Shown in pieces: positions 16,678-50,212 of a DNA stretch of 64,000 nt (positions are counted from its first letter, which is position 1; each line of letters begins with the position of its first letter). The notes beneath the pieces were generated by a model, which did not search any database, was not told where the DNA came from, and saw only the letters and a list, made by a program, of their open reading frames with translations. Source of the DNA: an uncultured Syntrophaceae bacterium (GTDB lineage Bacteria > Desulfobacterota > BSN033 > UBA1163). The DNA lies in contig CAYMJV010000002.1 of the NCBI GenBank assembly GCA_964390545.1, forward strand, positions 15,555 through 79,554, written 5' to 3'. Made by a program: the position numbers and the translations under genes.

Positions 16678-16736
16678 CTCCTCAATCGATTCTTAAGGAT
16701 TTTAAATTTGATTTTAAGGATTTTAAACTTATTAAA

Positions 16737-17213
16737 TTAAAAAGGACCGAATCTCACTTGCGCTTCAATTTCCTTTGTGGCCCCAAAGGATTCACCTGTC
16801 GCATTGATCTGAAATTGTAAGAAATTACCTGGGGTGCGTTGGGAATAGCCCGTGGGAGAATCGCCCAGTTCAAACCCCCCCTTTCCTCTCTCAATCGGTG
16901 GAGGGCAAGGCCCAAGATATTGAACCGGCTTTGGGGCTCCTTTGTCCAAGGCGGCTCCGCTCCAGCCATAGGAGTCTTCCCCAATCTTCATTCGAGGAAT
17001 GGGTTGATAATAATTTTCTGGAACTCGCTTTAGACCTACCTGGAAGATGGCCTCAGAAGCATAAAAGGCGCCCGTTCCCACCCTTTCGTTCCCCGATATG
17101 TTTGTCTCAAAGGTGGTCGTGCTGATCGCACTGATTCCAATGAAGGTTAAAATAAGAAGCATGATCAGAGCAATAACTAACGCCACACCCTTTTCATTGC
17201 TTAATCCTTGCAC
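16737..17213 (-). CDS. pilX: PilX-like minor pilin, module A
   Basis: PilX_N-type start (EKGVALVIALIMLLILTFIGISAISTTTFETNISGNER...AFYASEA). Sits after pilW. Confidence 0.75.
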   Translation of the reverse strand: MQGLSNEKGVALVIALIMLLILTFIGISAISTTTFETNISGNERVGTGAFYASEAIFQVGLKRVPENYYQPIPRMKIGEDSYGWSGAALDKGAPKPVQYLGPCPPPIERGKGGFELGDSPTGYSQRTPGNFLQFQINATGESFGATKEIEAQVRFGPF

Positions 17214-17243
17214 AAGAGCCTCCCCCTTCTCCCGTTACGGACT

Positions 17244-28949: not shown

Positions 28950-29714
28950 TCACTTGTTTAAATTCAAATACAAAGTGATGATCGCCTCTCCATAGAAGAG
29001 GGAAACAGCGGCCCCAAGGGAAAGAAAGGGTCCAAAGGGGATCGCATATTTCAAATCTTTCCCTTTGAGCATCATGACGATCACGCCGATGATGGATCCG
29101 ATGAGTGAACCTAAGAGAATGGTGAGGATTACGGCTTTCCAACCCAAGAAGGCCCCGATCATCGCCAGTAATTTGACATCCCCTCCACCCATCCCCTCCC
29201 TTTTGAACAACCACTGATAAAAAGTGGCAACCAGAAAAAGACTCCCTCCTCCCAAGAGAACCCCTATCAGAGAATTTAAAAATGTGAGTTGGGGAAGAAT
29301 GAACGAAGCGATGAGTCCAACACCTATCCCGGGCAGGCTGATCACATCAGGAATGATCTGGTGAAACAAGTCGATGACCGTAATGACAATTAAACTCGCT
29401 AGGAATGAGAAATAGAAAAGATAGCTCCAAGAAACCCCGAACCGGCTGAACAGAAGGAAGGAACTGAGGGCGGTCACCCCTTCCACAAGGGGATACTGCG
29501 AAGAGATAGGGCCTTGACAATAGCGACATTTTGCCCTGAGGAGGAGGTAGCTGACCAGAGGGATATTGTCATAAAAAGGAATTGAACGTTGACAATGAGG
29601 ACAATGAGAGCCCGGAAAGATGATCGATTCCCCCTTGGGGATTCGACAGATACAGACATTCAGGAAACTACCGACGATGGCCCCAAAAACAATTGAACCC
29701 ACGATCCACATCAA
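28950..29714 (-). CDS. pilD: Prepilin peptidase / N-methyltransferase PilD (A24 family)
   Basis: CPHCQ...CRYCQ zinc motif, multiple TM helices, and the active-site region GMGGGDVKLLAMIGAFLGW. Confidence 0.9.
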   Translation of the reverse strand: MMWIVGSIVFGAIVGSFLNVCICRIPKGESIIFPGSHCPHCQRSIPFYDNIPLVSYLLLRAKCRYCQGPISSQYPLVEGVTALSSFLLFSRFGVSWSYLFYFSFLASLIVITVIDLFHQIIPDVISLPGIGVGLIASFILPQLTFLNSLIGVLLGGGSLFLVATFYQWLFKREGMGGGDVKLLAMIGAFLGWKAVILTILLGSLIGSIIGVIVMMLKGKDLKYAIPFGPFLSLGAAVSLFYGEAIITLYLNLNK

Positions 29715-29780
29715 AGTTCCTCCGAGACTGAAAGGTTATATCATTGAACCCTGTGCGTTATGCTCTTTCCCCTCGGCATC

Positions 29781-31697
29781 TTATCGATGACATTCCAAAT
29801 CCTGAATCATCCACCTCAAATCTTCCACCCTTGGCTTCGCCTTGGGAACCATTTCAATCCCTTTTTGATAATAATACTTACCCTTTTCGATATCCTTCAT
29901 TCTGCTGACATAAATGTTACCCAGTTCCTCATAAAGGGTGATGATGCCTGGGGCCAATTTCATTGCCTTCGTCAACTCTCTAATGGCACCTTCATAGTCA
30001 CCCATTTCCTTATAGAGGATCCCTAATCCAAATAATAGCCTCACATCCTTTGGATTTTTCGATAGTAAATTTCTTAGGATCGCCTCTGATTTCCCATACT
30101 CCTTTTGGTTCTGGTAGTAAAGAGAAAGGTTGATTTTCAAGACCTCATCTTCGGGTTTCAACGACAGGGCAGCCATCAACTCCTGAAGGGCCCGTTCAGG
30201 CCGATTAAGTTTTTGATAAACGATACCAAGATTGTTTCGAGACTCATAATCTATCGGAAGAATCTGGACCGCTTTTTCGAGATATTCTGCCGCTTTTTCG
30301 TCCATCCCTAAATCCATATAGACGACCCCCATGAGGGCATTGGCCACATTGCTCTCAGGATACTTTTCCACTGCATCTGACCACAGGGTGTAACTGTTTT
30401 CCCATATTCTGTTTTGCTGAATGGTCAGGAAGGAATAACACCCTAGCAAAAACAAAAAAAGGGTTAGGGAGAGTAGTTTGAAAAATCCTTCAGAAAATCT
30501 TGGATGAATGATGGAGGACAACCTATCAAAACCAATTCCCAAAAGAAAACAAGTCGAGAGGGAAGGGATAAAAACATACCGATCTGCCAGAAGGGTGCTG
30601 ATCGGGATAATATTGAGATAAGGGAGCAAGGTCACAAAGAAGAACCATACAGAAAAGAAAATGACCTTTGTCCTCTTGAGAGACCAGATGCTTAACCCAA
30701 GCAGCGAACAAACGGACACGACGGCGATTAGAGTTCGAAGGTTAAGGAGTTCAACGGGAAGAGTAATCGTGTAAGCGGCTGAGTAGTTGAACGCAAAGGC
30801 CAGAAGTTTGATATTGTAGAGAAAGACATAAAAGCTGATCAGGAAGTTATTAAAGAAATTGCCTCCCCTGTAGGGCTTCACTCCTCCGGCATCAAGCATG
30901 ACTCTGATTAATATGAAGGCAAAGATGAGGGAAACAATAATAGAAAGGACGAAAAACAACCAGTGTCCCTTCACAAAATCAATCCATCTGTCTTGTCGGA
31001 GGGCTATCTCATAAACGAGGATGATTGCTGGAAAGACAATGGCTGCGGGTTTTGAAAGCGTGGCCAGAAGAATAGAAAGAAGAACCAGACCAAGGAAGGT
31101 TATTTTAGCCCCCCCCTTCTTCCCCCTTCCTTTGAGGTAGAGATAAAAAGCAAGAAAAAAGAAAAATCCTTGAAGGACTTCTTTCCTAGCTGCAAGCCAT
31201 GTCACTGCCTCCACATGGACGGGATGCGCAGCAAATAAAAGCGCACCGAATAACCCGACACGGAAATGGGAATCTGGCTGCTTCCCTCCTCTCAAATTGG
31301 CAGATAAAAACCTAAGAACAAGAAAGACCATCAGACAGGTAAGTATGTAAAAAAGAATATTTGTTATACGATAACCCGTGGGGTTCAATTTCCAGAATTT
31401 GTAGTCAACTGCGTAACTTAACATCCGAACAGGCTGATACGTTTGCCCTTTCTCAGGCTTAAATATTTTCTTAATTCCTTCCCAACCTAAGTTCCGGATG
31501 CTTGCATTTTGGTAAATCATCCCATCATCCCAATTGGTGAACTGGTGTCCCAGGGTATTAAGATAAAGAACAGCTACAAGAACAGCAATCAGAAGAGAGG
31601 CGATCCATTCTCTTCGAGGACTTACCAACCCCCTCGGCTCATGGGCGTGGGACATACCGGCCTTTCCACTTTTAAATAACATGCGGTTTAAAATCAC
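29781..31697 (-). CDS. GT-C fold membrane glycosyltransferase with C-terminal TPR array (TMTC/PMT-like)
   Basis: 638 aa. First-loop acidic motif (FTNWDDGMIYQN...YQPVRMLSYAVDY) and about 10 TM helices, followed by at least 5 TPRs (NALMGVVYMDLG...LGILYKEMGDYEGAI). The start may be the ATG at 31655, because the track start overlaps the upstream gene by 26 nt. Confidence 0.7.
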   Translation of the reverse strand: MILNRMLFKSGKAGMSHAHEPRGLVSPRREWIASLLIAVLVAVLYLNTLGHQFTNWDDGMIYQNASIRNLGWEGIKKIFKPEKGQTYQPVRMLSYAVDYKFWKLNPTGYRITNILFYILTCLMVFLVLRFLSANLRGGKQPDSHFRVGLFGALLFAAHPVHVEAVTWLAARKEVLQGFFFFLAFYLYLKGRGKKGGAKITFLGLVLLSILLATLSKPAAIVFPAIILVYEIALRQDRWIDFVKGHWLFFVLSIIVSLIFAFILIRVMLDAGGVKPYRGGNFFNNFLISFYVFLYNIKLLAFAFNYSAAYTITLPVELLNLRTLIAVVSVCSLLGLSIWSLKRTKVIFFSVWFFFVTLLPYLNIIPISTLLADRYVFIPSLSTCFLLGIGFDRLSSIIHPRFSEGFFKLLSLTLFLFLLGCYSFLTIQQNRIWENSYTLWSDAVEKYPESNVANALMGVVYMDLGMDEKAAEYLEKAVQILPIDYESRNNLGIVYQKLNRPERALQELMAALSLKPEDEVLKINLSLYYQNQKEYGKSEAILRNLLSKNPKDVRLLFGLGILYKEMGDYEGAIRELTKAMKLAPGIITLYEELGNIYVSRMKDIEKGKYYYQKGIEMVPKAKPRVEDLRWMIQDLECHR

Positions 31698-33654
31698 CCT
31701 GCTGATCCATGAAGATTCGAAACCAATTCTCTAAAAAGAGAAGAGACCAAATCTTTGCCGAATGGTCATAGCGTAAGGAGAGGTGCTCTTCCAGGAGTTG
31801 TTCGATGCCTTCTTTCCTGAAATATCCTCTCTGCAGCGCCTTCCGGTCCAAGAGGACATCGTAAACATAATTTTTTAGATCTTTTCTAATCCATCTTGAA
31901 ATGGGAACGCCGAATCCCATCTTTTTTCGCTTTGAAATAGCCGGTGGAAGAAAATCGGAAAAAGCTTTCTTGAGGATAAATTTGGCCCTGGATCCGTTTA
32001 GTTTGAATTGGGATGGAATTTGTGCGACCAATTCCATGAATTGATGATCCAGAAACGGAACGCGGGCCTCGAGAGAATTAGCCATGGTGGCAATATCCAT
32101 TTTGACGAGTAGATCCTCAGGAAGGTAGGAATGGATATCCAGATAAAGCAATTTATTTAAAGGATCTTCGGTTTCGCTTTCCTCGTATTTTTCTACTAAA
32201 TAACCAACGGGGTCGATGTGCATTAAGGTATGATCCATTTCTGGGGAATAAATTCCACTTCTCTCTTTGGCGTTGAAGATTTTGATCTGTTCTGCGTAAT
32301 TTCTAGCCTGGTTAGAAGATAACAATTCCAGAAAATCTGCCAGCCGATTGAATGTCTTCTCCCTCCAATGCAGGGAAGCCCCCATTCTGAGAATGGGCGG
32401 CATCCAGTCCTTTCTTACCTTTTCTGGAATTTTAGTAAACCAGGCAACCCACTTACTTCGAAGATATCTCGGATAACCTGCAAAATTCTCATCCCCGGCA
32501 TCTCCGGTGAGCACCACTTTCACGAAATCCTTTGTCATCTTCGCCACATAATAGGTGGGAATGGCTGACGAATCAGCGAACGGTTCGCTGTAGTACCATA
32601 CCAATTCAGGCAAAATCTCAATGGCATTCGGCCGCACCACAAATTCGTGATGTTCAGTCGAAAAATGTCTTGAAACAATTCTTGCGAACCCCAGCTCATC
32701 AAACTCTTTCTCTTCAAACCCTATGGAGAATGTTTTTACAGGTTGATGACTCAACTTCGACATGATCCCTACGACGAGACTGGAGTCCATCCCTCCGCTC
32801 AGAAAGGCCCCTACAGGGACATCGCTGATGAGTCTGAGTTTCACCGATTCTTCGAGCCCTGACCTGATTTGATCACCCCATTCATTCAAATCCGCTTTAT
32901 TCTTTTGAATCGGGGAAAAATCGAGGTCCCAGTATTTTTCTATCTTCACCTTTCCTGACAGATCATAGAGCAGGTAGTGGGCGGGAGGTAATTTCTTTAT
33001 CCCTTCGAAGATCGTAAGAGGAGACGGAACATATTGATAAGTCAAATAATGATGAAGCCCAACGAGGTTCACCTTTCGCTCGACCCCTGCTGCTTGAAGA
33101 ATTGCCCTTATCTCTGAGGCAAATAGAAAGCGACCTTTCCCCATCCAGTAAACCAAGGGTTTCTTGCCCAGCCTGTCTCGAGCCAGAAAAAGCCTTTTCC
33201 GCTTCAGATCCCAGATAGCAAAGGCGAACATCCCTCGAAAATATTTCAGGCACTCAACATCCCATTCTTCATAGGCATGAAGGATCACCTCTGTGTCAGA
33301 TCTTGATCTAAAAACATGTCCTTTTTCTTCTAACCCTTTCCTGACTTCTTGGAAATTATAAATCTCTCCGTTATAAACGATCCAAATCGTTCCATCCTCA
33401 TTACGCATGGGCTGATGCCCAGCTTCCGAGAGATCGATGATGGAGAGACGGCGGTGTCCCAACGCCACTTCAAAACCACCTTCATCTCGAGGGGGTCCTG
33501 ATGATTTGTTCACTTCAATGGTTCGACTCCCTCTTAGGAAGAGCATTCCTTCATCATCCGGCCCCCGATGTGCCAAGGCATCACACATCCTCTTGGTCAC
33601 TTCCACGGAGATGCGCTTATTGTCGAAATCGATCTCCCCACAGATCCCGCACAT
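31672..33654 (-). CDS. Asparagine-synthase-family glutamine amidotransferase, copy 1
   Basis: N-terminal MCGICG (Ntn Cys nucleophile), HRGPDD, and the PP-loop SGGMDSS. Confidence 0.85.
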   Translation of the reverse strand: MCGICGEIDFDNKRISVEVTKRMCDALAHRGPDDEGMLFLRGSRTIEVNKSSGPPRDEGGFEVALGHRRLSIIDLSEAGHQPMRNEDGTIWIVYNGEIYNFQEVRKGLEEKGHVFRSRSDTEVILHAYEEWDVECLKYFRGMFAFAIWDLKRKRLFLARDRLGKKPLVYWMGKGRFLFASEIRAILQAAGVERKVNLVGLHHYLTYQYVPSPLTIFEGIKKLPPAHYLLYDLSGKVKIEKYWDLDFSPIQKNKADLNEWGDQIRSGLEESVKLRLISDVPVGAFLSGGMDSSLVVGIMSKLSHQPVKTFSIGFEEKEFDELGFARIVSRHFSTEHHEFVVRPNAIEILPELVWYYSEPFADSSAIPTYYVAKMTKDFVKVVLTGDAGDENFAGYPRYLRSKWVAWFTKIPEKVRKDWMPPILRMGASLHWREKTFNRLADFLELLSSNQARNYAEQIKIFNAKERSGIYSPEMDHTLMHIDPVGYLVEKYEESETEDPLNKLLYLDIHSYLPEDLLVKMDIATMANSLEARVPFLDHQFMELVAQIPSQFKLNGSRAKFILKKAFSDFLPPAISKRKKMGFGVPISRWIRKDLKNYVYDVLLDRKALQRGYFRKEGIEQLLEEHLSLRYDHSAKIWSLLFLENWFRIFMDQQGDFKPHVI

Positions 33655-33655: not shown

Positions 33656-34834
33656 TTAGGCTCTCCCGCTCAGCATATGTTGATAGAGTTCGATGTATCG
33701 ATTAGCGATCAAATCAATGGAGTAATTTTCTCGTATATATTGTCTGCTCCTTCTACCCACTTCTTCTCTTACTCCTCCCTCTCGAATAAGATAACGGATG
33801 GCATTGGAAAGCCCTTGGACATCTCCGGGATGGACAAGGACTCCATTCTTGGCCAAAATGTATTGCCCTACCGAAACTTCTTTGGATTCTCCCTTCCCAA
33901 GGGCCTCTGGATTTCCTCCGACATCTGTCGCAATGCATGGAATTCCTTGGCTCATGGCTTCCAACAAGGCATTGGACACCCCTTCAGTTCTTGAAGGCAG
34001 GACAAAAAGATCAGCCTCTCTCAAGTAAGAAGAGACATCCTGAACCATCCCACGAAAATCGATTGAATCTGTCAGGTTTAATGATTTGGATAAATTTCTG
34101 AGTTCCGATGCAAGAGGACCATCTCCCAGAATCAGAAGTTTAAGGGATTTTTCATGTTGCATCACCTGGGCCCATGCTTTAATTAGGATATCCATCCCTT
34201 TTTCCCTGCTCAGCCTTGCTGATGTCAGGACAGTTCTAACGGGGGCGTAAGCACCCTTCCCTTCGGACGAAATCTCAACACCATTGGGAATATAGACAAT
34301 GCGCGATTCAGGATATCCGATCTCGATAAATTCCCTTCCACTGATCTTGTTTGTCGCAACCAAATAATCCATTTTCTTGACCAAATATTTCAATTGAAAA
34401 TCCCCTGAAGGATATCGTCTTAACTCCCTGATATCACTTGTCATTCCAGAACTTCCGCTTTTAACAAGAACCGGTTTATGAAGAAGTTCTCTTCCAAAGA
34501 ATACAGAAACAAAAGCGGGGTAAAGGACTTGATGGACATGAATCAAATCGTAATGCTTCCCCTGTGCAAGAAGATAAGCGCCAAGGCTCGCCATATAGGC
34601 CAAGACTCCAAAGGAACGAATCCCTCTTATTCCGAACATTCCCCAGCATGAAAAATTCCGAATGACTCTAATCCCATCTATCCTTTCCGTCGGAAGGGTA
34701 TTGATCCGCCACCACCCTGTTATAAGAGTAACATCAACACTCTTCTCTATTAATTTCTTAGCGAGCAATTGGGCCTGTTTTTCTGCTCCCCCAATGAGAG
34801 GATAAAACTGTGAAATGACCATTAGGACTTTCAT
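33656..34834 (-). CDS. GT4 (GT-B) glycosyltransferase
   Basis: C-terminal EX7E-type motif (LPSRTEGVSNALLEAMSQGIPCIATDVGG). Confidence 0.8.
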   Translation of the reverse strand: MKVLMVISQFYPLIGGAEKQAQLLAKKLIEKSVDVTLITGWWRINTLPTERIDGIRVIRNFSCWGMFGIRGIRSFGVLAYMASLGAYLLAQGKHYDLIHVHQVLYPAFVSVFFGRELLHKPVLVKSGSSGMTSDIRELRRYPSGDFQLKYLVKKMDYLVATNKISGREFIEIGYPESRIVYIPNGVEISSEGKGAYAPVRTVLTSARLSREKGMDILIKAWAQVMQHEKSLKLLILGDGPLASELRNLSKSLNLTDSIDFRGMVQDVSSYLREADLFVLPSRTEGVSNALLEAMSQGIPCIATDVGGNPEALGKGESKEVSVGQYILAKNGVLVHPGDVQGLSNAIRYLIREGGVREEVGRRSRQYIRENYSIDLIANRYIELYQHMLSGRA

Positions 34835-35703
34835 CCGTTACCTTTGCGGGAATCTCTTCGCCTCATGAGATAATTGGGTTTTAAAACCCGTTCCATTCGG
34901 TATCCCTCGCTTTCAAGAAGCTCGATTACGTTTCCTCCTGCCCTTTCCACGAGTTCCGAATGCTGTTCAATAATCATAAAGTCAGGGCGCAGGGAGTCGT
35001 CAATATCCCTGAAGAATTGATGTAGGACCCTAAACTCAAAACCTTCGATATCGAACTTGGCCCCTTGGACTCGATTAATTCCATGTTTCCTTAAGAGCGC
35101 CGCAAGGGGAGAACACGGGACATCAACGTGATCTTCATTCATTGATAAAAATGAATTTCCTGCTCGATTCCCAGTGACATTCAACCCGAGGCGAAGAACC
35201 TCCTTTTTGTTCGAGACTCCCTCATTCACCGCGATAACATTTTGGATATGATTCAATTTAAGGTGAAGTGTAAGTTTTCTAAAATTGTAAGGGTCCGCTT
35301 CCACCGCAACGACAGACCCCTTTTCTCCGACGATCCGTGATGCGATCAGTGAATAAAACCCGATGTGGGCGCCGATGTCCAGGAAGATATCTCCTGGCCG
35401 TAAATGTTTCCTCATAAACTCAATTTCACGGTGCTCGTAAAGATGTGGATAGAATAACAATGCACCATCGACGCACTCATAAGGATCTAACTGCATTCTA
35501 AAACCGAGGGCCTCCACTTCCAAGGATATCCTTCTTTTCCTCAGATAGAACTGTCTCAGGAGACTTGCAGCAAAGGCCGCTCCTCTCATCCGTGGAAATC
35601 TCCTAGTCAGGCGGGATAAGAATTTCAATTCAGAATCCAACGTTGCCTCCGGCAAAGGGTGGTTCAAGCCTGTCTTCATCACCTTCAGCATTGAGTTTCT
35701 CAA
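34831..35703 (-). CDS. FkbM-family SAM methyltransferase
   Basis: FLDIGAHIGFYSL...VVAVEADPYNFRKL pattern. Confidence 0.7.
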   Translation of the reverse strand: MRNSMLKVMKTGLNHPLPEATLDSELKFLSRLTRRFPRMRGAAFAASLLRQFYLRKRRISLEVEALGFRMQLDPYECVDGALLFYPHLYEHREIEFMRKHLRPGDIFLDIGAHIGFYSLIASRIVGEKGSVVAVEADPYNFRKLTLHLKLNHIQNVIAVNEGVSNKKEVLRLGLNVTGNRAGNSFLSMNEDHVDVPCSPLAALLRKHGINRVQGAKFDIEGFEFRVLHQFFRDIDDSLRPDFMIIEQHSELVERAGGNVIELLESEGYRMERVLKPNYLMRRRDSRKGNG

Positions 35704-35814
35704 GCCCCCCTCCTCTGGTCAACTTACTTAAAACATGTTGAGATCTTTCTGTGGATCGGCAAAATCCCTCACCTAACGGACCCCTCAGGTGATCAATCAC
35801 ACCAGGCCCACTTT

Positions 35815-36804
35815 TCAAAATAGGTTTGCCATCCAACCCTTTACAGCTCGGGTGACACGTGCATACTTAGGGAGCACGCTCACATTTCTCTTTTCGAGAG
35901 CGTATAGTGCTCCCCCTAGTGGTAGAGCGAAAAGGACCAAGCTTTTTGCTAACGCAGGCTGAATCTTCCGTAACGATCTCGATATTCCCATCCCCGAGTG
36001 CAGTGAAAATCGAACGTAATTTACTGCCGATCTAAAGAAATCCCATGGGGCGAAGCGAAACCACATGATTTCCTCATTTAGACGAAGTTCGTAATAGAAT
36101 ACCCCCCCCGCAGCATTTCTGGATGGGTCGCTTAACGAATGAGTAATTTGATCTGAAGAAAACGCATTTTGAATAAAATATATCCTTAGCACTTCGTTCA
36201 CGAAACGGGTCTTGTACGACTTTGCAATTGCATTCCAGACCACACCCTCTGGAACATACCTTGCTCCTTCAACGTCTGGGAAAGGATATCGGCGTAACAC
36301 TTCGCTACACTGAAATCCCCACTTTTCGCCTTTCACCCCGTACCGATAATAAATTTCAAGAGAATCAGAATCCGTAATGTCCCAGGGAAATCTATGCCCG
36401 ACCAACCTCCCATACTGGTCCTTACATAGGCCGCAAACCCCGGAGAATCGGGGTTTTTGCTTCGTTGGAATAGAATCCCAGTGGAATTTAAAACGCTCTA
36501 AGGCTTCCGGAACACATGCATCGTCGGAATCAAAAGGGAGGAAGAATTTCCCCTGGGCCTGTTCCAAGCCTCGTCTGAAAGCCACATGTTTTCCCTTGTT
36601 CGGCTGCCACACGTAACGAACGAGAAAATCTGCCTCTTGCTTCCACTTTTCAACGACCTCATATGTATCATCAGTGGAACCATCGTCCACAATGATCCAC
36701 TCGAAACTCCGATATGTCTGCGCTCGAAGGCTTTCATAGACGCGCGGCAACGTATGGGCACGGTTAAGAGTTGGGGTGAATACTGTAAACAATGGCTTGT
36801 CCAA
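35815..36804 (-). CDS. GT2 glycosyltransferase
   Basis: FTVFTPTLNRAHTL...WIIVDDGSTDDT and DxD motif (FDSDD). Confidence 0.8.
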   Translation of the reverse strand: MDKPLFTVFTPTLNRAHTLPRVYESLRAQTYRSFEWIIVDDGSTDDTYEVVEKWKQEADFLVRYVWQPNKGKHVAFRRGLEQAQGKFFLPFDSDDACVPEALERFKFHWDSIPTKQKPRFSGVCGLCKDQYGRLVGHRFPWDITDSDSLEIYYRYGVKGEKWGFQCSEVLRRYPFPDVEGARYVPEGVVWNAIAKSYKTRFVNEVLRIYFIQNAFSSDQITHSLSDPSRNAAGGVFYYELRLNEEIMWFRFAPWDFFRSAVNYVRFSLHSGMGISRSLRKIQPALAKSLVLFALPLGGALYALEKRNVSVLPKYARVTRAVKGWMANLF

Positions 36805-36886
36805 TTTGTCACCTCACAGATCATTCCTCACTGTTTTATAGAAACGATTATGTCTTATTGTCATTTGCCTCCCGAACAAACACAAA

Positions 36887-37684
36887 CTAATTAAACCCGT
36901 GCCCACTCTTACAAATGTTTGATTCAAGGAGTTCAAATCCCTTCTTCCAAAAGAAATCCATTATCTCCTCAGGCTTGGATACCTCGAAGGGATAACCGTC
37001 AACCCAATCGATAAGATCATGCCAAACAGACATCCCTCTGCTTTTCTTCTTCTCAGCCCATTCTTTGAAGGCAAGAGGATTCTGGAGTCGCATCAGCCGA
37101 GCCAAAGCGGAATGAATGAGCCAAAGAGCCCCTACCATGAATACCATGAATATCTGAACCGGCTTTGGAGATTGATTATAGAACTTCTTCAAGGCGGCCC
37201 AGCGGCGGCTTGCATCTCCCTGATCATTATAGATTGAAATGTATAATTTCCCCCCTTCACCGACCAACGGAATAACATTTTCCAATGCTTTCCACATTGC
37301 CCCTGTATGGTGAAGAACTCCCCAAGAATAAACAACATCAAATTGTCCAAGCAGTTTCAGATAATCCCCGTTCAATACATCTCCTTGCTCAATCGTCCAA
37401 TTTGAATCATTGGGGAAATAACGCCGTTTGAGTTCCATCGTACATGCCACTGAGAGTGGATCAAAATCAAACGAGTGAACCCTTGCCCCTAATCGTCTTG
37501 CAGAAAGCGAAAATAAGCCGCTTCCTGAGCCAATATCGAGAAAAGACTTCCCAGTTAAGTAATCCGCCTCCAGCATTTGTCTAAGGGATTTTTGTGCCTC
37601 CAATATTCGTTCTTCATCCAATGTCAAAAGAAATCGCTGCCAGTTTTTACCAAATTCAAATCGGTTTGCTTTTTCAACTTCCAT
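36887..37684 (-). CDS. Class I SAM methyltransferase
   Basis: Motif I FLDIGSGSGLFSL, and FDVVYSWGVLHHT. Confidence 0.7.
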   Translation of the reverse strand: MEVEKANRFEFGKNWQRFLLTLDEERILEAQKSLRQMLEADYLTGKSFLDIGSGSGLFSLSARRLGARVHSFDFDPLSVACTMELKRRYFPNDSNWTIEQGDVLNGDYLKLLGQFDVVYSWGVLHHTGAMWKALENVIPLVGEGGKLYISIYNDQGDASRRWAALKKFYNQSPKPVQIFMVFMVGALWLIHSALARLMRLQNPLAFKEWAEKKKSRGMSVWHDLIDWVDGYPFEVSKPEEIMDFFWKKGFELLESNICKSGHGFN

Positions 37685-37721
37685 TTAGTGCTCACTCATT
37701 GGTTTATTCTCTTAATGTGTT

Positions 37722-38921
37722 TCATCCGGTTGAGTCTTCTTCAAATAATCTAACAAAGGATTTGACAAAATGTTCCTCAGAACAATTATTCTGAATCCAA
37801 AGCCATGATTTGTATGATAGATCAGCATGGTCCCCGTTTCTCAATAATATCTTGACCATGAATTCAGCGATTTCTTTTGAGTCTTTGCTATTAAAAATAG
37901 GAGGCCTCGTTTTGTAATAAGGCACTATGGAATCATTCTCATTTGAAATAGAAATACTAATCGTACCATTCGCTAAAGGTTCTAATGCAGCATAAGTAAT
38001 TGCCGAGGTTCCAAACTGCCCAAAACACATGGCGGCTCCTTGATAATATCGATCAAGTTCCTCTCTCCTCATCTCATCAATCCATATAATAGAATCATCG
38101 ATACCCAAGGCTCTCGATAATGATTTCGATGCTTCCACATCAGGCCCCTTCCTTACAAGAACAAGTTTGGATTGGTGGTCCCCGGTCCGTTTTTTAAATA
38201 TTGCATAGGATTTCAATAGGACGTCATTTCCTTTATTATCCGCCATATCTCTTAGAGTTCCTGACCAGACATGGCGCGTGGAGGAAAAGAAATATCGTTC
38301 CGCCCGAATTTGTTCATATACTATCCTCTTGCTTTGAGCCTTTTGTTCTAGGAGAGTTTGGTAATCAGTAGTCTTGAAATAATGGGGCAGGAAAAACATT
38401 CGCTTACCAGGACATATTCGGCCCAGACTTTCAAGTTGATAGGGAGATATCATGATGGAGGTTGCTTCGCAAATGGATCTTCTTGCCTTAGAACGCTCTG
38501 AGATGACTCTATAAGGATGTTTGATGAACCTCTTACAGAGAGGGGTGTTTGAAAGCGCCATGCGAATAAAGCATTCCTCGTCGATATCTGAGCCATAACT
38601 CCAGTACTTATACTTCATCCCAGCTTTTTTAAGAAGGTAAGCATTTCTCCCTGTGGCAAGACAATGAAGGATATGTTCTTCTGCTTTGATCCGACTTAAT
38701 AAGGTGACGATCTTCTTCGGACTTCGAAGGTGATCTTGAAACACATGAGATTGGTCCCACTCCTCGGATCGGGCGCCATAATGGAAATGTGTCGAATCGT
38801 GGTTCGTTGCCTTTGATCCCAGATAAATATAGTACGTCTCAACGCCATGTCGATTTAGCGTATCCGCCATACGAAAAGGCAGCCCTCCTACTTCGAAGGA
38901 ACAAAAAATGAGATAACTCAC
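37722..38921 (-). CDS. Hypothetical protein, possibly a divergent GT-B-fold glycosyltransferase
   Basis: 399 aa. Only the C-terminal half loosely follows a GT4 layout (KLVLVRKGPD...GIDDSIIWIDEM...AALEPLANG). No firm motif. Confidence 0.35.
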   Translation of the reverse strand: MSYLIFCSFEVGGLPFRMADTLNRHGVETYYIYLGSKATNHDSTHFHYGARSEEWDQSHVFQDHLRSPKKIVTLLSRIKAEEHILHCLATGRNAYLLKKAGMKYKYWSYGSDIDEECFIRMALSNTPLCKRFIKHPYRVISERSKARRSICEATSIMISPYQLESLGRICPGKRMFFLPHYFKTTDYQTLLEQKAQSKRIVYEQIRAERYFFSSTRHVWSGTLRDMADNKGNDVLLKSYAIFKKRTGDHQSKLVLVRKGPDVEASKSLSRALGIDDSIIWIDEMRREELDRYYQGAAMCFGQFGTSAITYAALEPLANGTISISISNENDSIVPYYKTRPPIFNSKDSKEIAEFMVKILLRNGDHADLSYKSWLWIQNNCSEEHFVKSFVRLFEEDSTG

Positions 38922-39610
38922 CGTCTTCTCCCGACAAATGAAAAAGAGTTAGCAGTCATTCGAAGCTTTTTTGAATTATCAATCAGGTAATCGAGATACT
39001 TCAAAAGACAAAACACATATCGTATCGAAATACGCCATAAGGCTTTCAGGTACTTTGTTGGAACAAATTGCTCAAAATATTCTAAAAGGAATACGGATAA
39101 AAATGATCCACCCCCTGATCCGACCTGTTCGAGAATGACATCAAATCTTCTTTCATCAAATAGGGAACGGATCCCTTTATCAGTGAATCTGAAATAATCG
39201 TGCTCGTCATGAATAACGTTCAAGAATGGTAGTTCCAAAACAACATATCCCCCAGAGTGGAGGACTCTAAATATCTCATCCGCAACGATCCATGGTTTTT
39301 TTACATGTTCAAGAACGGCAATGCTATAGACCACATCAAGGCATTCACTCTTGAAGGGTAGAAAATGGGCATCGGCAACGACATGGAGGTTCTTCTTGGA
39401 GAAAGAGATATCCAGATTAATCGTTTTGATGTTCTTTGAAAGATAGTGGTCGAACTGGCCAACACCCGAACCGAGATTTAAAACCCTTTTCCCTGGCCCA
39501 TTCTGGTTCATCCAGTCAAATAATTTCTGATTCCTCACCCTGGTATATGTGGGCTCAGGAAGCCATGCGTATATTCTATTGAACATCTTCTTGAGTCTCT
39601 CTTGAATCAT
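38918..39610 (-). CDS. Class I (type 11) SAM methyltransferase
   Basis: VLNLGSGVGQF...LPFKSECLDVVYSIAVLEHV. The start is taken at ATG 39610, which forms an ATGA overlap with the DegT stop. The track ORF starts at 39643. Confidence 0.7.
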   Translation of the reverse strand: MIQERLKKMFNRIYAWLPEPTYTRVRNQKLFDWMNQNGPGKRVLNLGSGVGQFDHYLSKNIKTINLDISFSKKNLHVVADAHFLPFKSECLDVVYSIAVLEHVKKPWIVADEIFRVLHSGGYVVLELPFLNVIHDEHDYFRFTDKGIRSLFDERRFDVILEQVGSGGGSFLSVFLLEYFEQFVPTKYLKALWRISIRYVFCLLKYLDYLIDNSKKLRMTANSFSFVGRRR

Positions 39611-40743
39611 AATTGGGAAATCACTTTTTTTAACACATCGCAAACGATCTTAACTTCTTCTTCGGATAGTTTAGGATACAAAGGAAGAGAGATCGTTCTG
39701 TTCCCTATCTCGTTCGCAATGGGAAAGTCTTCAGGCCTATATCCAAACTTCTCTTTGAAATATTTTAAAGTATGAACGGCCCTAAAGTTAACGGCACATC
39801 CGATGCCATTTTCCTCCATCTTTTCGATCACTTCATCTCTTGAAACTTCTCTTGGTAAGAGAACCGTAAAGAGGTGATGTCCGCTCCTTTCGTTTCCTTG
39901 AGGTCCTTCTATGAAATCGAGCCCCTCTACATCATTCAAAAGCTCACGATAAAGCACTTCAAGATCCTGACGCCGCTGCCTGTAATGATTCAACTTGTCA
40001 ATTTGATGGATAAGCAAAGCGGCCTGAATGTCGTCCATATTATATTTCCACCCCATGGTCTCCATATCCCAGTGCTCATATTTTTTCGTATAGCGATAGG
40101 AAGCATCTTTCGTGATGCCATGATGCCTGGCAGACCGATACCAGGAGGCATCTTCCGCAGATTTGCACACCAGAGCCCCCCCTTCTCCACAGGTCATGCT
40201 TTTCGTTGCATAGAAAGAGAAACAGGCAGCGTGGCTGAGCTGACCGGGTCTTACGCCATCCCTAAGTCCCTCGATGCAATGAGCAGCGTCTTCAATGAGG
40301 ATCAGATTATATTGTTGGGCTAACTCTGAAAAACCCAGTATGTCTGCCATGCGGCCAAATAAATGGACAGGCAAGATAGCCCTGGTTTTCTCCGTGAGGG
40401 CTGCTTTAACGGTCTCGGGCAAAATCATTCCACTTTTTGGACATACATCCACAAATACAGGGCTGGCCCCCGCTTGGAGGATGGCTGTGGCCGTGGCCAC
40501 AAAAGTCATAGGCGTCGTAATCACTTCATCCCCAGGACCAACTCCATGCCGGAGAAGGGCGAGATGGAGAGCCCCTGTGCAACTTGTCAAACCCACTGCT
40601 TCCGGGATGCTCAGATATTCAGCAAATATTTTTTCAAACTCCGCCACCTTAGGGCCGGTCGTGATGAAGATGGATTTCATCACCTCACCGGCGGCGGTGA
40701 TATCGCCTTCTGTGATATTATGTTTAAAAAATTCGATTTTCAT
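39607..40743 (-). CDS. DegT/DnrJ/EryC1-family PLP sugar aminotransferase
   Basis: 378 aa. FSFYATKSMTCGEGG (PLP lysine region) and the N-terminal DegT layout. Confidence 0.85.
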   Translation of the reverse strand: MKIEFFKHNITEGDITAAGEVMKSIFITTGPKVAEFEKIFAEYLSIPEAVGLTSCTGALHLALLRHGVGPGDEVITTPMTFVATATAILQAGASPVFVDVCPKSGMILPETVKAALTEKTRAILPVHLFGRMADILGFSELAQQYNLILIEDAAHCIEGLRDGVRPGQLSHAACFSFYATKSMTCGEGGALVCKSAEDASWYRSARHHGITKDASYRYTKKYEHWDMETMGWKYNMDDIQAALLIHQIDKLNHYRQRRQDLEVLYRELLNDVEGLDFIEGPQGNERSGHHLFTVLLPREVSRDEVIEKMEENGIGCAVNFRAVHTLKYFKEKFGYRPEDFPIANEIGNRTISLPLYPKLSEEEVKIVCDVLKKVISQL

Positions 40744-40761
40744 AAAAGAAATGATTCCTCC

Positions 40762-42021
40762 TTATAAATGTTCCCCGCCCAAAAAGTCCCCATTCTCTGG
40801 GTTAAAGGAAATCTCTTTAGCAAGTTCCTTTGGGAGAAGAAACAACATCCCTCCCTTCTCTTCAAACGATCTTTGACACCGAGTGCACTGATTCCCTTGA
40901 ACCCGCGCGCGGCAATCTGGACAAACCAATCCAATCTGACCTCTAATAAAATTTTCTTTGACTTGCTTCGATTCCAAGGACCAGGATATAAAAACATCTC
41001 GATCCCTTGGTAGGATGGAATCGTATTCAATTAACGCCTTGGCCATGTGATAGGTGATTCTCTTTGTAATGGAAGCGAATATTCCGTTCATTATCCTCTT
41101 CTGCAACTTCGGTGTCGGAGGCCCATAACAGAACAGCAAGGCCGAACAGATGGAACATAGAAAAAATACCTTCTCATGAAAAAAGGTTTCTTCTCTTTGA
41201 ATCTCATAAAATCTTCTGACCAAGGACCCCAGTTCTGCTTTCCTCCATAAGGTCTGAAGACTTTGCTTCGCAATCTGGTCTGCTGCCTTTCTGGCTGCCC
41301 TTCTGAATCCTATGGATTTCAAAAGGTAGGGTTTCGACCATCCCTCCGCCCAATAATTTGTATTCTCGTTGAAGAGGGCATAGCGTGCCATCGCCGACCA
41401 ATTTTCTAATGTCTCTTTTTTATTCGTTATATGATGAAGAAAATTATTGCTCACAATAAAATTGGCTCCTCCTGATTCAATCGGCGGATTCAAACAATCG
41501 GCAACTATGCGTTGCCCGATATGAGGATACCTCTTCGATTGAATTAGACTGTAAGGATTGAGATCGATACCTACGACTTTATTTTTATCTGAAAATATTC
41601 TTTTTGAGAAAGTCCCATCCCCGATAGCCAATTCAACAATACCGCCCTGGATATCCCGGGTGATGCTTTCGATATTCTCTTTGATAAAGGCCATCTCTAA
41701 GGACTTTGCAATGATGGGATATAAATGCATGGGATACTGGGAGATGAATTCAGGGATGTAATGGAGAGCATTCTGATGCAATTGAGAAGGTTGACATTTT
41801 TTCATTAAGGTGAATTTAAACCGAGTCCAAAAGATCAAAAAGATTCCATAAAGATAAAGGAGGGGGATAAAGCCTAATTTCACAACATTTCCAATGAAAT
41901 GGATAGAAAAAAGAAAAAGGGACAAAAGATTTCTTCTCTTCTTAAATTTTGAAGATGAGGAAATAGACCGAATAAATCGGACATAACCCCGGTTGACATC
42001 TTTTTCTATAACATCTGTCAT
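40762..42021 (-). CDS. Membrane-anchored methyltransferase-domain protein with C-terminal Cys4 zinc ribbon
   Basis: N-terminal TM helices, an MTase-like core (VELAIGDGTFSKRIF...VVGIDLNP), and a C-terminal CPDC...CTRC ribbon (Trm112-like). Confidence 0.5.
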   Translation of the reverse strand: MTDVIEKDVNRGYVRFIRSISSSSKFKKRRNLLSLFLFSIHFIGNVVKLGFIPLLYLYGIFLIFWTRFKFTLMKKCQPSQLHQNALHYIPEFISQYPMHLYPIIAKSLEMAFIKENIESITRDIQGGIVELAIGDGTFSKRIFSDKNKVVGIDLNPYSLIQSKRYPHIGQRIVADCLNPPIESGGANFIVSNNFLHHITNKKETLENWSAMARYALFNENTNYWAEGWSKPYLLKSIGFRRAARKAADQIAKQSLQTLWRKAELGSLVRRFYEIQREETFFHEKVFFLCSICSALLFCYGPPTPKLQKRIMNGIFASITKRITYHMAKALIEYDSILPRDRDVFISWSLESKQVKENFIRGQIGLVCPDCRARVQGNQCTRCQRSFEEKGGMLFLLPKELAKEISFNPENGDFLGGEHL

Positions 42022-42024
42022 CTT

Positions 42025-43290
42025 CTATATATTCCTATATAAAGAGATATTTAACTTTATAAATTCAAATGGATTTCGTTTGCTCAAATACCCCAACAAG
42101 AAAAGGCTTATCAAGAAACCGATCATACAGGTCGATGCCGTTGCCAGAGCGGCTCCTGTTCCGGAAAAGTTGGGAATGAGGTATAAATTCAGTACAACGC
42201 CGATCAGGCCAAGAATAACCGCTGTGATAACCATCGCATAGAAGGCACCTATTTTTACGCAATAAGGTGCAACCAGGGAGGATAAAGGTAAAAACCATGC
42301 GGCGATCATGAGGATTCGGAAAGTTGCCACTGCAGGGAGATAATTCCTGCCCCCATAGATGAATAGAATGGGTTTTGCAAGTAAAATCATCAACAGAACA
42401 ATTCCTCCCCAACAATAAAAACCCCATCTTAACGATCTTATCGTAATCTCATAATCGTCGGTTGCATGAATCACTCTTGGATAGAGGGCCGTCTGGAAAG
42501 TCATCGGGATAAACATGAGATAGAAAGCGGCACTCAAAGATACAGCAAACATTCCCGCGTTGGATTCCCCGCAATATCGAAAGACGATCAGCAGGTTAAT
42601 TTTTGTATACACGAAGGTTGCGATGGTGGCAATGTGCTGTTTAAGCCCTGCTGCGATGATCCCTTTTGCCAGGTCTTTGGAAAACCTTCCACTCAATAAA
42701 TCATTTCTTCTGAATTTAGCCAAAAGCAGGAGAAAAGTGATCCCTTGGATGATGAGAACACTTATGAGGACGATGCTGATATCCAGTGAATCAACCCAGT
42801 AGGCGTATCCGACAACAAGAATGTTGGTCACCCCTTGAACCACCCCGATCACCCCGGAATATCTGATGTCCCCCATCGCCTGTAAAAAAATGATCAAATT
42901 CCCGGTAAGAATCGTCGCAATCAATAAGATATCAAGAACTATTAAATACTTGAATGTTTCTGAAGACACCTGTTCTGGCCATCCCAAGACAAAGCCGGTC
43001 AATGCCGCCGCAGCGAAAAGGCCATAAGTGAGACTCAGTGAGAAAGTGGTCATCCATCTTGACCTGTCATCCGGCCCATATAGAGATTTATTGGCAAAAT
43101 GATAGATCGCTGTATCCATGCTCATTCCAAACAGGACAGCAAATAGTCCCACCCAGGTTTGCATTTCCGCATATATCCCACGGCCAGAAGGGCCCAAGGC
43201 GCGATTGATCATTGCCGCCGTGATAAACCCAGCAGACATGGCGACCGTTTTGCTCCCCAACATCCAAATGAAATTTCTTTTCAATTCCAA
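42025..43290 (-). CDS. wzx: Wzx-type (MOP superfamily) oligosaccharide flippase
   Basis: 421 aa with about 12 predicted TM helices, in the position and with the composition typical of polysaccharide flippases. Confidence 0.65.
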   Translation of the reverse strand: MELKRNFIWMLGSKTVAMSAGFITAAMINRALGPSGRGIYAEMQTWVGLFAVLFGMSMDTAIYHFANKSLYGPDDRSRWMTTFSLSLTYGLFAAAALTGFVLGWPEQVSSETFKYLIVLDILLIATILTGNLIIFLQAMGDIRYSGVIGVVQGVTNILVVGYAYWVDSLDISIVLISVLIIQGITFLLLLAKFRRNDLLSGRFSKDLAKGIIAAGLKQHIATIATFVYTKINLLIVFRYCGESNAGMFAVSLSAAFYLMFIPMTFQTALYPRVIHATDDYEITIRSLRWGFYCWGGIVLLMILLAKPILFIYGGRNYLPAVATFRILMIAAWFLPLSSLVAPYCVKIGAFYAMVITAVILGLIGVVLNLYLIPNFSGTGAALATASTCMIGFLISLFLLGYLSKRNPFEFIKLNISLYRNI

Positions 43291-43318
43291 GAGAAGAGGA
43301 CCTCTCCTTCAAACTTTC

Positions 43319-44377
43319 TTAATGTAATTCTTTTTTACCGCTCTTTGTGATAATCGGAATGCTCCTCATCCAGAGCTGCTTTTCCCACCATTTTCTATTT
43401 TCTCTGTACCATTTGATCGTTCTTGAAATTCCTTCCTCCCAGGAGACTTTGGGCTTCCAATTAAGGGATTGTTGGATCTTTCGAATATCACCCGTATGCC
43501 TGAAAACCTGTCCGGGACGGTCACCGACGAATTCAATGATTGAATCATCCTTGCCCATGAGCTTTATGATGTTCTGGGCGATCGAAAGAATAGACCGATG
43601 GACACCAGATGCCACATTGAAAACTTCCCCCTTCACTTTTTTGAGGTCAGCATGAAGAATGGCATCAATCGCGAGACAGAGATCTTCCACGAATATAAAA
43701 TCTCTGGATGGACTTCCGTCTCCATGGACACGAATGGGTTCGTTTAGAATGCAACTGGTGATAAATCTCGGAATGGCCTTCTCCAGGTGCTGATATGGGC
43801 CATAGTTGTTAAAAGGTCTGATAATCGTCACTGGGGCGTCATAGGTAGCCCAGTAAGAGTAAACAAGCCTGTCTGCCCCTGCTTTAGCAGAGGCATAAGG
43901 ACTCATAGGCAGTAAAGGGTGATTTTCGTCCATTTTATCTTTCATTGCTGTTCCGTAGACTTCAGAGGTGGAGATGTGAATAAATCTCTCCACCCGGTCC
44001 TTGTATTTCAAGACAGCATTCGCGACAGTCTGAGTCCCCAGGACATCCGTCTCGAAAAAAATGTAGTTATCATAAATAGAACGTGTCACATGGGTCTCTG
44101 CTGCAAAATGGACCACCACATCTGATTGGGAAACAAGGGTATCGACTAGTTCACCGTTTCTGACATTGCCATACCAGAAAACGAGGCGTTCCCCCTTATG
44201 TTCATTGATATTTACAGGCAAATTCTCCACATTTCCGGCATAGGTGAGCGTATCGAGTACAATGATCTTATACTGGGGGTACTTATGATAGACATATCTG
44301 ACAAAGTTACTCCCCATAAATCCGGCACCTCCAGTGACCAGCATTGTCCTTTCCATCTCCTCCATTCCCTCCTTCAC
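43319..44377 (-). CDS. rfbB: dTDP-glucose 4,6-dehydratase (extended SDR)
   Basis: VTGGAGFMGSNF, the catalytic YASAKAGADRL (YxxxK), and an RmlB-like C-terminus. Confidence 0.85.
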   Translation of the reverse strand: MKEGMEEMERTMLVTGGAGFMGSNFVRYVYHKYPQYKIIVLDTLTYAGNVENLPVNINEHKGERLVFWYGNVRNGELVDTLVSQSDVVVHFAAETHVTRSIYDNYIFFETDVLGTQTVANAVLKYKDRVERFIHISTSEVYGTAMKDKMDENHPLLPMSPYASAKAGADRLVYSYWATYDAPVTIIRPFNNYGPYQHLEKAIPRFITSCILNEPIRVHGDGSPSRDFIFVEDLCLAIDAILHADLKKVKGEVFNVASGVHRSILSIAQNIIKLMGKDDSIIEFVGDRPGQVFRHTGDIRKIQQSLNWKPKVSWEEGISRTIKWYRENRKWWEKQLWMRSIPIITKSGKKELH

Positions 44378-45881: not shown

Positions 45882-45902
45882 TGGAGCCGAAAAAATTCTC
45901 TC

Positions 45903-49247: not shown

Positions 49248-49248
49248 G

Positions 49249-50187: not shown

Positions 50188-50212
50188 ACGTTTGTTTCTT
50201 ATGATTTATTAT

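Follow-up and report, generated by a model that had tools for sequence, protein, structure and literature searches.

The gene at 29781..31697 on the minus strand of a 64,000-nucleotide stretch of DNA from an uncultured Syntrophaceae bacterium (GenBank assembly GCA_964390545.1, contig CAYMJV010000002.1; the whole stretch is referred to as the window) encodes a membrane protein that is, with high probability, an active periplasmic GT-C transferase using a polyprenyl-phosphate-linked sugar. More tentatively, we propose that this enzyme O-glycosylates pilus proteins in the periplasm with a polyprenyl-phosphate sugar as donor, as an analogue of TfpW of Pseudomonas aeruginosa. We infer the function from the fold, the motifs and the gene order: the membrane domain has a GT-C fold in structure models and is homologous to that of the animal TMTC1-4 proteins, the C-terminus is an array of tetratricopeptide repeats (TPRs), the prepilin peptidase gene pilD follows the gene in every species-level orthologous locus, and the glycan-synthesis island in which it is the last gene is bounded at its other end by type IV pilin genes and a gene for a lipid-linked sugar synthase. 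The target gene, its parts (amino acids, aa; transmembrane, TM) and its immediate neighbours are the following:

29781..31697, minus strand: target gene, TMTC-like GT-C glycosyltransferase with C-terminal TPR domain (open reading frame, homologues, AlphaFold model)
30399..31697, minus strand: membrane GT-C catalytic domain, aa 1-433 (11 TM helices, first periplasmic loop of 57 aa, interfacial helix at aa 281-300)
31524..31529, minus strand: codons of D57-D58, putative catalytic acid pair in the first periplasmic loop, TMTC motif M1 (TNWDD in the translation)
31047..31055, minus strand: S215-K216-P217, with K216 as the phosphate-binding Lys of TMTC motif M4 and the neighbouring Glu changed to Pro (alignment)
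30570..30587, minus strand: A371-D-R373-Y-V-F376 in the fifth periplasmic loop, corresponding to TMTC motif M7 (ERxxY) for the donor phosphate (aligned to AERVLY of TMTC)
29781..30398, minus strand: periplasmic TPR domain, aa 434-638 plus stop codon, about six repeats, presumed acceptor-binding module (Pfam TPR families, 12 model helices)
29715..29780, minus strand: 66-nt spacer between target and pilD, with a GGAGG ribosome-binding site ahead of the pilD start
28950..29714, minus strand: pilD, prepilin peptidase/N-methylase, next gene downstream of the target (Pfam A24_N_bact 3e-34, Peptidase_A24 1e-23)
31672..33654, minus strand: AsnB-like glutamine amidotransferase, directly upstream of the target (Asn_synthase 1e-108)

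Translation of the target open reading frame (ORF) from its GTG codon gives the 638 aa claimed in an earlier note on this DNA. Two ATG codons offer alternative starts, M6, which yields 633 aa and thereby the length of most orthologues, and M15, which yields 624 aa and has a Shine-Dalgarno-like GGAAAGG 6 nt upstream; the true start may be one of these two. With 917 close homologues in a word-indexed search and 68,449 cluster representatives (50% identity clusters) matched by the membrane domain at E<=1e-3 in an exhaustive search, the ORF is far beyond chance. The earlier note gave the 66-nt gap to pilD exactly and correctly placed the target as the last gene of the block of glycan-synthesis genes, but had the order of transcription reversed when it described the gene as downstream of pilD: with both genes on the minus strand, the target, which has the higher coordinates, is transcribed ahead of pilD.

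Closer examination of the protein revealed two clearly separated parts. Pfam TPR_1/2/8 and related models match aa ~450-625, and the AlphaFold2 model of the full-length protein, built from a 90-sequence alignment (pLDDT 94.6, pTM 0.92), has 12 helices over aa 435-637 that form about six TPR hairpins, in agreement with the C-terminal TPR array described earlier. The best structural matches of this part were consensus TPR proteins, the TPR domain of OGT and MamA. For the membrane part, the earlier count of about ten TM helices should rather be 11, with one additional, interfacial helix (aa 281-300) that lies in the fourth periplasmic loop. The N-terminus and the cytoplasmic loops are positively charged according to hydropathy and loop charges, and this, together with the 11 TM helices, assigns a periplasmic location to the DD loop, to R373 and to the TPR domain. 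The predicted topology is thus one of 11 TM helices with a cytoplasmic N-terminus and a periplasmic TPR domain.

In the fold search the full-length model was dominated by TPR proteins, and the membrane domain (pLDDT 95.1 when modelled alone) was therefore searched by itself. With Foldseek against the PDB it matched only GT-C glycosyltransferases. ArnT, STT3 and PMT enzymes led the search with the model: ArnT (5ezm/5f15) was best, with an E value of 4e-5 and a TM-score of 0.49, followed by STT3 of the oligosaccharyltransferase OST, Pmt4, PglB, ALG12, Pmt1/2, AftA and EmbA/B, and the Foldseek probability was 1.00 for ArnT, STT3, Pmt4, PglB, ALG12 and Pmt1/2. As modelled, the fold of the membrane domain is GT-C, of the GT-C_A class. 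Searches at the sequence level were far less informative for this domain. Pfam gave no match to the first 447 residues even at E=10, searches of NCBIfam and of PDB sequences with the target returned generic TPR similarity only and nothing for the membrane domain, and the family profile matched no solved structure among the PDB sequences, PglB and STT3 included. Pfam PMT_2 was matched by 6/24 N-terminal domains of family members (best 4.6e-12) and Pfam PMT by 1/24, while the window protein matched neither, so that curated GT-C sequence models support the target transitively, through its relatives.

TMTC1-4 form CAZy family GT105 and are protein O-mannosyltransferases for cadherins and protocadherins. 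The likeness of the target to their GT-C plus TPR architecture, pointed out in the earlier note, was borne out by hidden Markov model (HMM) searches, hhalign and the fold search. The N-terminal regions of animal TMTC1-4 were taken, as an alignment, from the supplement to Eisenhaber et al. 2021 (PMC7801869). With a profile built from 24 N-terminal domains of the bacterial family, the 12 animal TMTC1-4 sequences tested all scored 150-173 bits in matches that covered almost the entire domain, hhalign of the family against TMTC gave a probability of 100% (E 4e-50, 381 aligned columns), and the window protein alone aligned with human TMTC3 at 23% identity over 438 columns (BLASTP). On the profile and hhalign scores, the term TMTC-like denotes demonstrated sequence homology and not just a common architecture.

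Residue conservation was analyzed in an alignment of 90 family members (24-88% identity). D57, D58 and P223 were invariant, and F53, W56, P89, S94, D98, H158, P159, E163, W167, R171, Y309, P359, P365, R373 and Y374 were conserved in at least 90%. The first-loop WDD acidic motif noticed earlier reads T-N-W-D-D, with both aspartates present in 90/90 members and aligned by hhalign to the DD motif of TMTC, and R171 (88/90) lies within a nearly invariant HP.H.E.V.W...RK stretch. Measured against the TMTC motif definitions M1-M7 and their metal and phosphate ligands (PMC7801869), M1 (DD) was kept as NWDD, M3 (RxD, loop 2) was kept as R171-K-E173, aligned to GRAD (R in 88/90, E/D at 173 in 61/90), and M7 was kept as D372-R373-Y-V-F376 (D/E in 90/90, R in 89/90, Y/F at +3 in 86/90). 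M2 (SHKSYRP, first loop) aligned to KGQTYQP, in which Y87 (72/90) and P89 (89/90) were retained and H and K lost, and M6 (PxxP) was reduced to TxxP. M4 (KE(T/Q)xxT, loop 3) aligned to S-K216-P217-A-A-I-V, with Lys in 67/90, Pro in place of Glu in 62/90 and no Thr at +5, and the motif as such is absent; M5 (DW, loop 4) was replaced by A308-Y309, with Tyr in 84/90 and mostly R or A at the preceding position. Pfam TMTC_DUF1736 did not match the target and was found in 1/24 relatives at E=0.08. Since the catalytic and phosphate-binding positions are intact, the sequence indicates that the enzyme is very probably active.

To define the genomic context, one genome per GTDB species was scanned, which yielded 16 orthologous loci (60-72% identity), all from metagenome-assembled genomes (MAGs) labelled Syntrophaceae, Syntrophorhabdus, Thermodesulfobacteriota or Deltaproteobacteria. 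In 16/16 of these loci pilD lay downstream of the target on the same strand, at a distance of 8 nt to 0.8 kb in most and of 3.3 kb in one. The same kinase gene followed pilD in 16/16, and the sigma-54 regulator came next in all 13 loci whose sequence extends that far; further orthologous contigs displayed the same order of target, pilD, kinase and regulator. The pairing with pilD was also kept in relatives of 49% identity (with an epimerase inserted), 46% identity (with a 4-nt overlap of the two genes and without the minor-pilin operon on the downstream side) and 41% identity. The neighbourhood on whose conservation with pil genes the earlier note had staked its reading was thus found to be conserved. 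In the window, no promoter-like or terminator-like site was found in the 66-nt spacer, and from the sequence target and pilD appear to be an operon-like, co-transcribed pair. Some relatives carry insertions between the two genes, among them a 23S_rRNA_IVP four-helix-bundle gene (L028 11898..12290), ~3 kb of DNA (L015) and a UDP-GlcNAc 2-epimerase gene (L031 4440..5597), so the pair is adjacent, not always contiguous. Linkage to pilD across the whole family was tested on 80 metagenome loci, ~75 of which held relatives of less than 40% identity, and was rejected; the linkage is confined to the orthologue group.

Upstream of the target, the glycan-synthesis island extends to a second set of conserved genes:

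33656..54428, minus strand: glycan-synthesis island between the two brackets, ~20 genes (Pfam scans)
54832..55797, minus strand: polyprenyl-phosphate glycosyltransferase, GT2 with two C-terminal TM helices, candidate donor synthase, directly after the pilins
57153..57608, 56436..56900 and 55885..56322, minus strand: three type IV pilin genes, candidate acceptors, with class III leaders G|F/LTLIE

The mature proteins of the three pilins consist of 17-20% Ser+Thr. The GT2 encoded at 54832..55797 matched DPMS (5mlz, 115 bits), GtrB (5ekp, 103 bits, full length) and ArnC (89 bits) in the PDB as well as PgfS, ArnC and AglJ in NCBIfam; the DPMS, GtrB and ArnC matches identify it as a polyprenyl-phosphate sugar synthase of the type that makes GT-C donors. 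This GT2 is 78-95% identical among its best 120 homologues and was found again after two pilin genes in three further contigs, so that with the window the order of pilins followed by GT2 is present in four independent loci.

Most of the genes between these two ends are not conserved. In a gene-by-gene comparison with MAG GCA_052744715.1, which has both island ends on one contig (L027/L028), the pilins were 49-67%, the DPMS-like GT2 80%, the adjoining GT4 (53259..54428) 64% and a helix-turn-helix (HTH) gene (52440..53069) 75% identical on one side, and the target was 70%, pilD 83%, the kinase 86%, the regulator 95% and PilV/W/X/Y1 76-86% identical on the other. From 33656 to ~52473 the island had no conserved counterpart: of its 19 genes, including the AsnB-like gene next to the target, 16 had no match and three matched other genes weakly at 26-33%. 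Island content also differed in relatives L001, L003 and L030, and in L001 a Wzt ABC transporter with a Wzt_C domain takes the place of Wzx. The island is therefore a hypervariable 10-23 kb cassette that is swapped wholesale between two conserved brackets (flanks 49-95% identical), one formed by pilins and the lipid-sugar synthase and the other by the TMTC-like transferase and pilD. That the enzyme stays constant while the island glycan genes are replaced fits an invariant acceptor and not an island-specific glycan. In the window the island encodes GT4s, a GT2, methyltransferases, DegT, a dehydratase, WbqC, a nucleotidyltransferase, radical S-adenosylmethionine (SAM)/SPASM enzymes, a second AsnB, an epimerase and Wzx. 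Pfam scans of the island revealed no Wzy, chain-length regulator, Wzy_C ligase/O-oligosaccharyltransferase or initiating phosphoglycosyltransferase. Two radical-SAM/SPASM enzymes and a GNAT acetyltransferase (45903..46934, 46922..47392 and 49249..50187) hint at unusual sugar modifications.

Several further genes lie close to the pilin end. A small PDDEXK_3 (GxxExxY-type) gene (54452..54835, minus strand) separates the conserved GT2 from the GT4 and is present in some relatives (L030 10978..11361) and missing in others. Divergent from the pilin genes, the segment 58362..61387 on the plus strand encodes a pair of SAM methyltransferases together with the second GT-C-like membrane protein of the window (59810..61387, plus strand; 525 aa), which has LWLDEIHT in its first loop, a weak TIGR03663/Agl23 match and no Pfam match; at the corresponding position, the methyltransferase pair recurs in relative L029 (940..6369) along with three PMT_2 genes. 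A second ArnC-like polyprenyl-phosphate glycosyltransferase (63363..64000, minus strand) is cut by the end of the window and matches ArnC positions 141-312.

Taken together, these elements can be arranged into a pathway. On the cytoplasmic face, the GT2 encoded at 54832..55797 would use a nucleotide sugar to attach a monosaccharide to undecaprenyl phosphate, and the lipid-linked sugar would then be flipped to the periplasmic leaflet. There, the membrane domain of the target would bind the polyprenyl-phosphate sugar via K216 and R373 and use the first-loop D57/D58 pair for transfer of the sugar to an acceptor hydroxyl. As acceptor, the TPR domain with its six repeats would hold a folded protein of the periplasm; the most probable candidates are the type IV pilins and other pilus proteins that the co-transcribed PilD matures. 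TPR tails act as acceptor-recognition modules in the TMTCs and in OGT. We favor pilus proteins as the likely acceptor, and a protein over a glycan, because of the TPR tail, the coupling to pilD across relatives, the attachment of the synthase gene to the pilins and the constancy of the enzyme against a changing glycan. The pathway would be of the same type as periplasmic glycosylation by DPMS/PMT, ArnC/ArnT or GtrB/GtrC (PMC11127046).

A number of observations weigh against the proposed role in pilin glycosylation or against individual steps of it. The target adjoins pilD and not a pilin gene, the pilins being located about 23-24 kb upstream on the same strand. Among family loci of less than 40% identity an A24 peptidase was nearby in only 1/~75, and a relative of 38% identity sits in a plain glycan cluster; the gene order, found in one lineage (Syntrophaceae and relatives), may reflect inheritance rather than function. 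TPR domains also occur in polysaccharide-export scaffolds, so that a TPR tail is no proof of a protein acceptor, and the link of the enzyme to any particular acceptor is inferred from sequence. The TfpW motif YX6PFX7P of periplasmic loop 4 was absent from the target and the 90 family members in a regular-expression search. The proposed metal ligands of the TMTCs (Glu of M4 and Asp of the M5 DW) are not conserved, and judging from the alignment the target may not use the metal site modelled for those enzymes. The presence of two GT-C and two ArnC-like GT2 genes in the window makes the pairing of donor synthase and transferase ambiguous. A search of the window for a GtrA-like flippase revealed no small hydrophobic ORF outside the known genes, only spurious antisense ORFs; the one flippase-like gene in the window is Wzx (42025..43290), and the flippase may be encoded outside it. 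The earlier argument for a pilus role from position thus stands in part: it is strengthened by the pilD synteny and by the pilins and donor synthase at the other end of the island, but it extends to the orthologue group only, and synteny does not identify the acceptor.

These points bear differently on the alternative explanations. We regard it as unlikely, though well worth considering, that GT2 and GT-C form a Gtr/Arn-type pair which adds a side-branch sugar to O-antigen, capsule, exopolysaccharide or lipid A-core, with the TPR domain binding the glycan or docking on the export machinery. A Wzt ABC transporter with Wzt_C, such as the one in the island of one relative, is typical of O-polysaccharide export. 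The position of the target as last gene of a glycan island and the location of most family members among glycan genes without pil genes would be accounted for in this way, ArnT as the closest solved structure modifies lipid A, and O-antigen modification in the periplasm has the combination of a polyprenyl-phosphate-sugar synthase with a GT-C as its hallmark (PMC11127046). Yet the enzyme remains ~70% identical and in place while the content of the island changes completely, which is hard to reconcile with a glycan acceptor unless that acceptor is a conserved core, and there would be no explanation for the close coupling to pilD, which in one relative amounts to an overlap of 4 nt; moreover, characterized glycan-modifying GT-Cs possess carbohydrate-binding modules or no extra domain, not TPRs (PMC11127046). 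Smaller still is the likelihood that the target is a general protein O-glycosyltransferase for other periplasmic or surface proteins and that its position next to pilD is inherited gene order without functional meaning. The homology to the TMTC protein O-mannosyltransferases, the huge size of the bacterial family (68,449 clusters) and its mostly pilus-free context, and the Ig/cadherin-like envelope proteins in the locus are consistent with such acceptors, but relatives of only 41-49% identity still have pilD as partner, also after loss of the minor-pilin operon downstream, and the matching bracket of the island is attached to pilin genes.

Transfer of a whole oligosaccharide to the pilins is improbable in our view. 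Here, the island product would be assembled on undecaprenyl pyrophosphate, flipped by Wzx or the ABC transporter and moved en bloc by an enzyme of relaxed glycan specificity, which would fill the role of PglL/TfpO with a different fold. An island with Wzx and without Wzy, Wzy_C ligase/O-oligosaccharyltransferase or chain-length regulator, and a conserved transferase that borders a hypervariable island within a pilus locus, would suit relaxed donor specificity; STT3 and PglB are among the structural matches, and TfpW has been proposed as both glycosyltransferase and oligosaccharyltransferase (bioRxiv 10.1101/2020.04.19.049825). On the other hand, the homologous TMTCs and the structurally closest ArnT are both described as using polyprenyl-monophosphate monosaccharide donors, the sequence profile of the family does not reach PglB, STT3 or any other solved structure, and what is conserved alongside the enzyme is a synthase dedicated to polyprenyl-monophosphate sugars. 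The extension of this idea to a new class of O-oligosaccharyltransferases, in which a TMTC-type enzyme attaches the island glycan en bloc to pilins and island swapping generates pilus glycan diversity, for example for phage escape, is a long shot. Finally, a non-catalytic pilus assembly factor, that is, a membrane-anchored TPR scaffold of the PilF/PilW/TadD kind, is suggested by JGI homologue names such as 'Tfp pilus assembly protein PilF' and 'Flp pilus assembly protein TadD' and by 67 bits of the TPR region on TIGR02521 type_IV_pilW. This score compares with a cutoff of 154 bits and is weaker than the MamA match, and Tgl reached 32 against 225, which points to generic TPR similarity; unlike the target, the lipoproteins PilF, PilW and Tgl have no 11-TM domain, and the DD pair and phosphate-binding residues of the target are invariant or nearly so, as expected of an active enzyme. 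With sub-threshold scores, an intact catalytic apparatus and 11 TM helices, an assembly factor was rejected as highly improbable. We therefore retain glycosylation of pilus proteins as the working proposal.

The window as a whole carries one long type IV pilus supercluster, located almost entirely on the minus strand:

112..5680: pilMNOPQ
20823..28926, minus strand: downstream conserved pil genes, comprising HAMP kinase, sigma-54 regulator, PilV-like, PilW, PilX and PilY1 (76-95% identical in a relative)
25798..28926, minus strand: HAMP histidine kinase and sigma-54 response regulator

Two tandem minor-pilin sets (13308..18125 and 20823..25465) each include a PilY1-like protein (951 and 1011 aa). 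Myxococcus-like pilus polarity genes are found at 9589..13103 inside the pil cluster, namely a small Arf/Ras-like GTPase (9589..10215), a response regulator with DUF4388 (10717..11493) and, on the plus strand, a TPR protein whose N-terminus matches SgmX with 132 bits (12036..13103). A He_PIG/Big_9 Ig/cadherin-like protein with a lipobox-like LLLSC and internal repeats (19498..20559, minus strand) is kept after PilY1 in a relative (L001 21395..21881); the earlier note had offered it as a more speculative acceptor, and nothing ties it to the target enzyme more than any other envelope protein.

On the upstream side, the AsnB-like gene at 31672..33654 overlaps the target ORF, as read from the GTG start, by 26 nt and was directly upstream of the target in 12/16 species-level loci as well as in the 46% relative, an arrangement that is frequent, not universal. 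It is one of three AsnB-like glutamine amidotransferase paralogues inside 32 kb (31672..33654, 47385..49247 and 61443..63356, all on the minus strand), of which one abuts the target and another sits between the second GT-C gene and the second ArnC-like GT2; the paralogues raise the question of an amidation of lipid-linked sugars. Membership in an XrtA/PEP-CTERM system was considered and rejected, since the AsnB-like protein on TIGR03108 (631 bits) and the TPR region on PrsT both scored under the respective cutoffs and no exosortase was seen.

GT-C/TPR protein O-glycosyltransferases as a kind are already known from TMTC and TfpW. TfpW is an 11-TM GT-C of 646 aa with a periplasmic C-terminal TPR domain that O-glycosylates the pilin of group IV pilin strains with D-arabinofuranose (D-Araf) from a polyprenyl-phosphate donor (bioRxiv 10.1101/2020.04.19.049825). 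The statement of the earlier note that bacterial homologs lack assigned substrates overlooked this pilin O-glycosyltransferase of the same architecture, which is the only bacterial enzyme of GT-C/TPR architecture with an assigned substrate found in our literature search (bioRxiv 10.1101/2020.04.19.049825). The same search found no characterized bacterial TMTC homologue, no TPR-bearing O-oligosaccharyltransferase of Bacteroidetes and no pilin glycosylation in Geobacter or Syntrophus; prokaryotic TMTC-like proteins had been mentioned in passing (PMC7801869). What is new here is the quantitative proof, at the level of sequence, of TMTC homology for an abundant unannotated bacterial family, the pilD-coupled orthologue group in Syntrophaceae-type bacteria and the bracket architecture, which provides a concrete substrate hypothesis. 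If correct, the proposal would add a second, independent case of GT-C/TPR pilin glycosylation, give the prokaryotic TMTC branch a substrate class, and bear on the choice of folded protein acceptors by TPR domains as well as on the origin of the enzymes of eukaryotic cadherin O-mannosylation. The pili of syntrophic Thermodesulfobacteriota are discussed as conductive filaments, and a post-translational modification would be added to that picture. If the acceptor were a glycan instead, the target would be an ordinary gene for periplasmic glycan modification.

Among known systems, PglL/TfpO (PilO) are likewise pilus-locus enzymes that glycosylate pilins in the periplasm, but they belong to the unrelated Wzy_C family and transfer undecaprenyl-pyrophosphate-linked oligosaccharides en bloc, and no Wzy_C is present in the target or the island. 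GtrA-GtrB-GtrC/GT136 systems share the combination of a polyprenyl-phosphate sugar synthase with an extracytoplasmic GT-C (PMC11127046), both parts of which are conserved here, and differ in that no GtrA-, SMR- or MATE-type flippase gene was found in the window, that the target has a TPR array in place of a carbohydrate-binding module and that the entire island lies between the two genes. The donor of ArnT (GT83), a polyprenyl-monophosphate monosaccharide, is made by an ArnC-type GT2, a homologue of which is the conserved neighbour of the target, while ArnT itself has no sequence-level match to the target, lacks a TPR domain and acts on lipid A.

The closest functional parallel is TfpW, which resembles the target in size (646 vs 638 aa), cytoplasmic N-terminus, 11 TM helices, loop-1 DD (DDX in TfpW) and periplasmic TPR domain, in having ArnT as best structural template and in the location of its gene within a type IV pilus locus. 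The TfpW gene of some species is clustered with genes for the lipid-linked donor (bioRxiv 10.1101/2020.04.19.049825). The two differ in that tfpW directly follows pilA whereas the target directly precedes pilD, with the pilins across the 10-23 kb island, and in that no DprE1, DprE2 or DPPR-synthase genes for D-Araf were seen, the candidate synthase of the target being DPMS/GtrB-like. With the motif absent, pilD and not pilA as neighbour and no D-Araf genes, the target was not assigned to the TfpW family; TfpW (AAM52060.1) was compared by description only. In comparison to TMTC1-4, the target is bacterial and periplasmic where the TMTCs face the lumen of the endoplasmic reticulum, has about six TPRs and would use undecaprenyl instead of dolichyl as donor lipid. 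It shares with them the 11 TM helices, the interfacial helix in the loop that joins TM7 to TM8, the C-terminal TPR array on the non-cytoplasmic side and, nearly verbatim, the stretches HP.H.E.V...R and P.SN...A(D/E)R.LY.PS.G.

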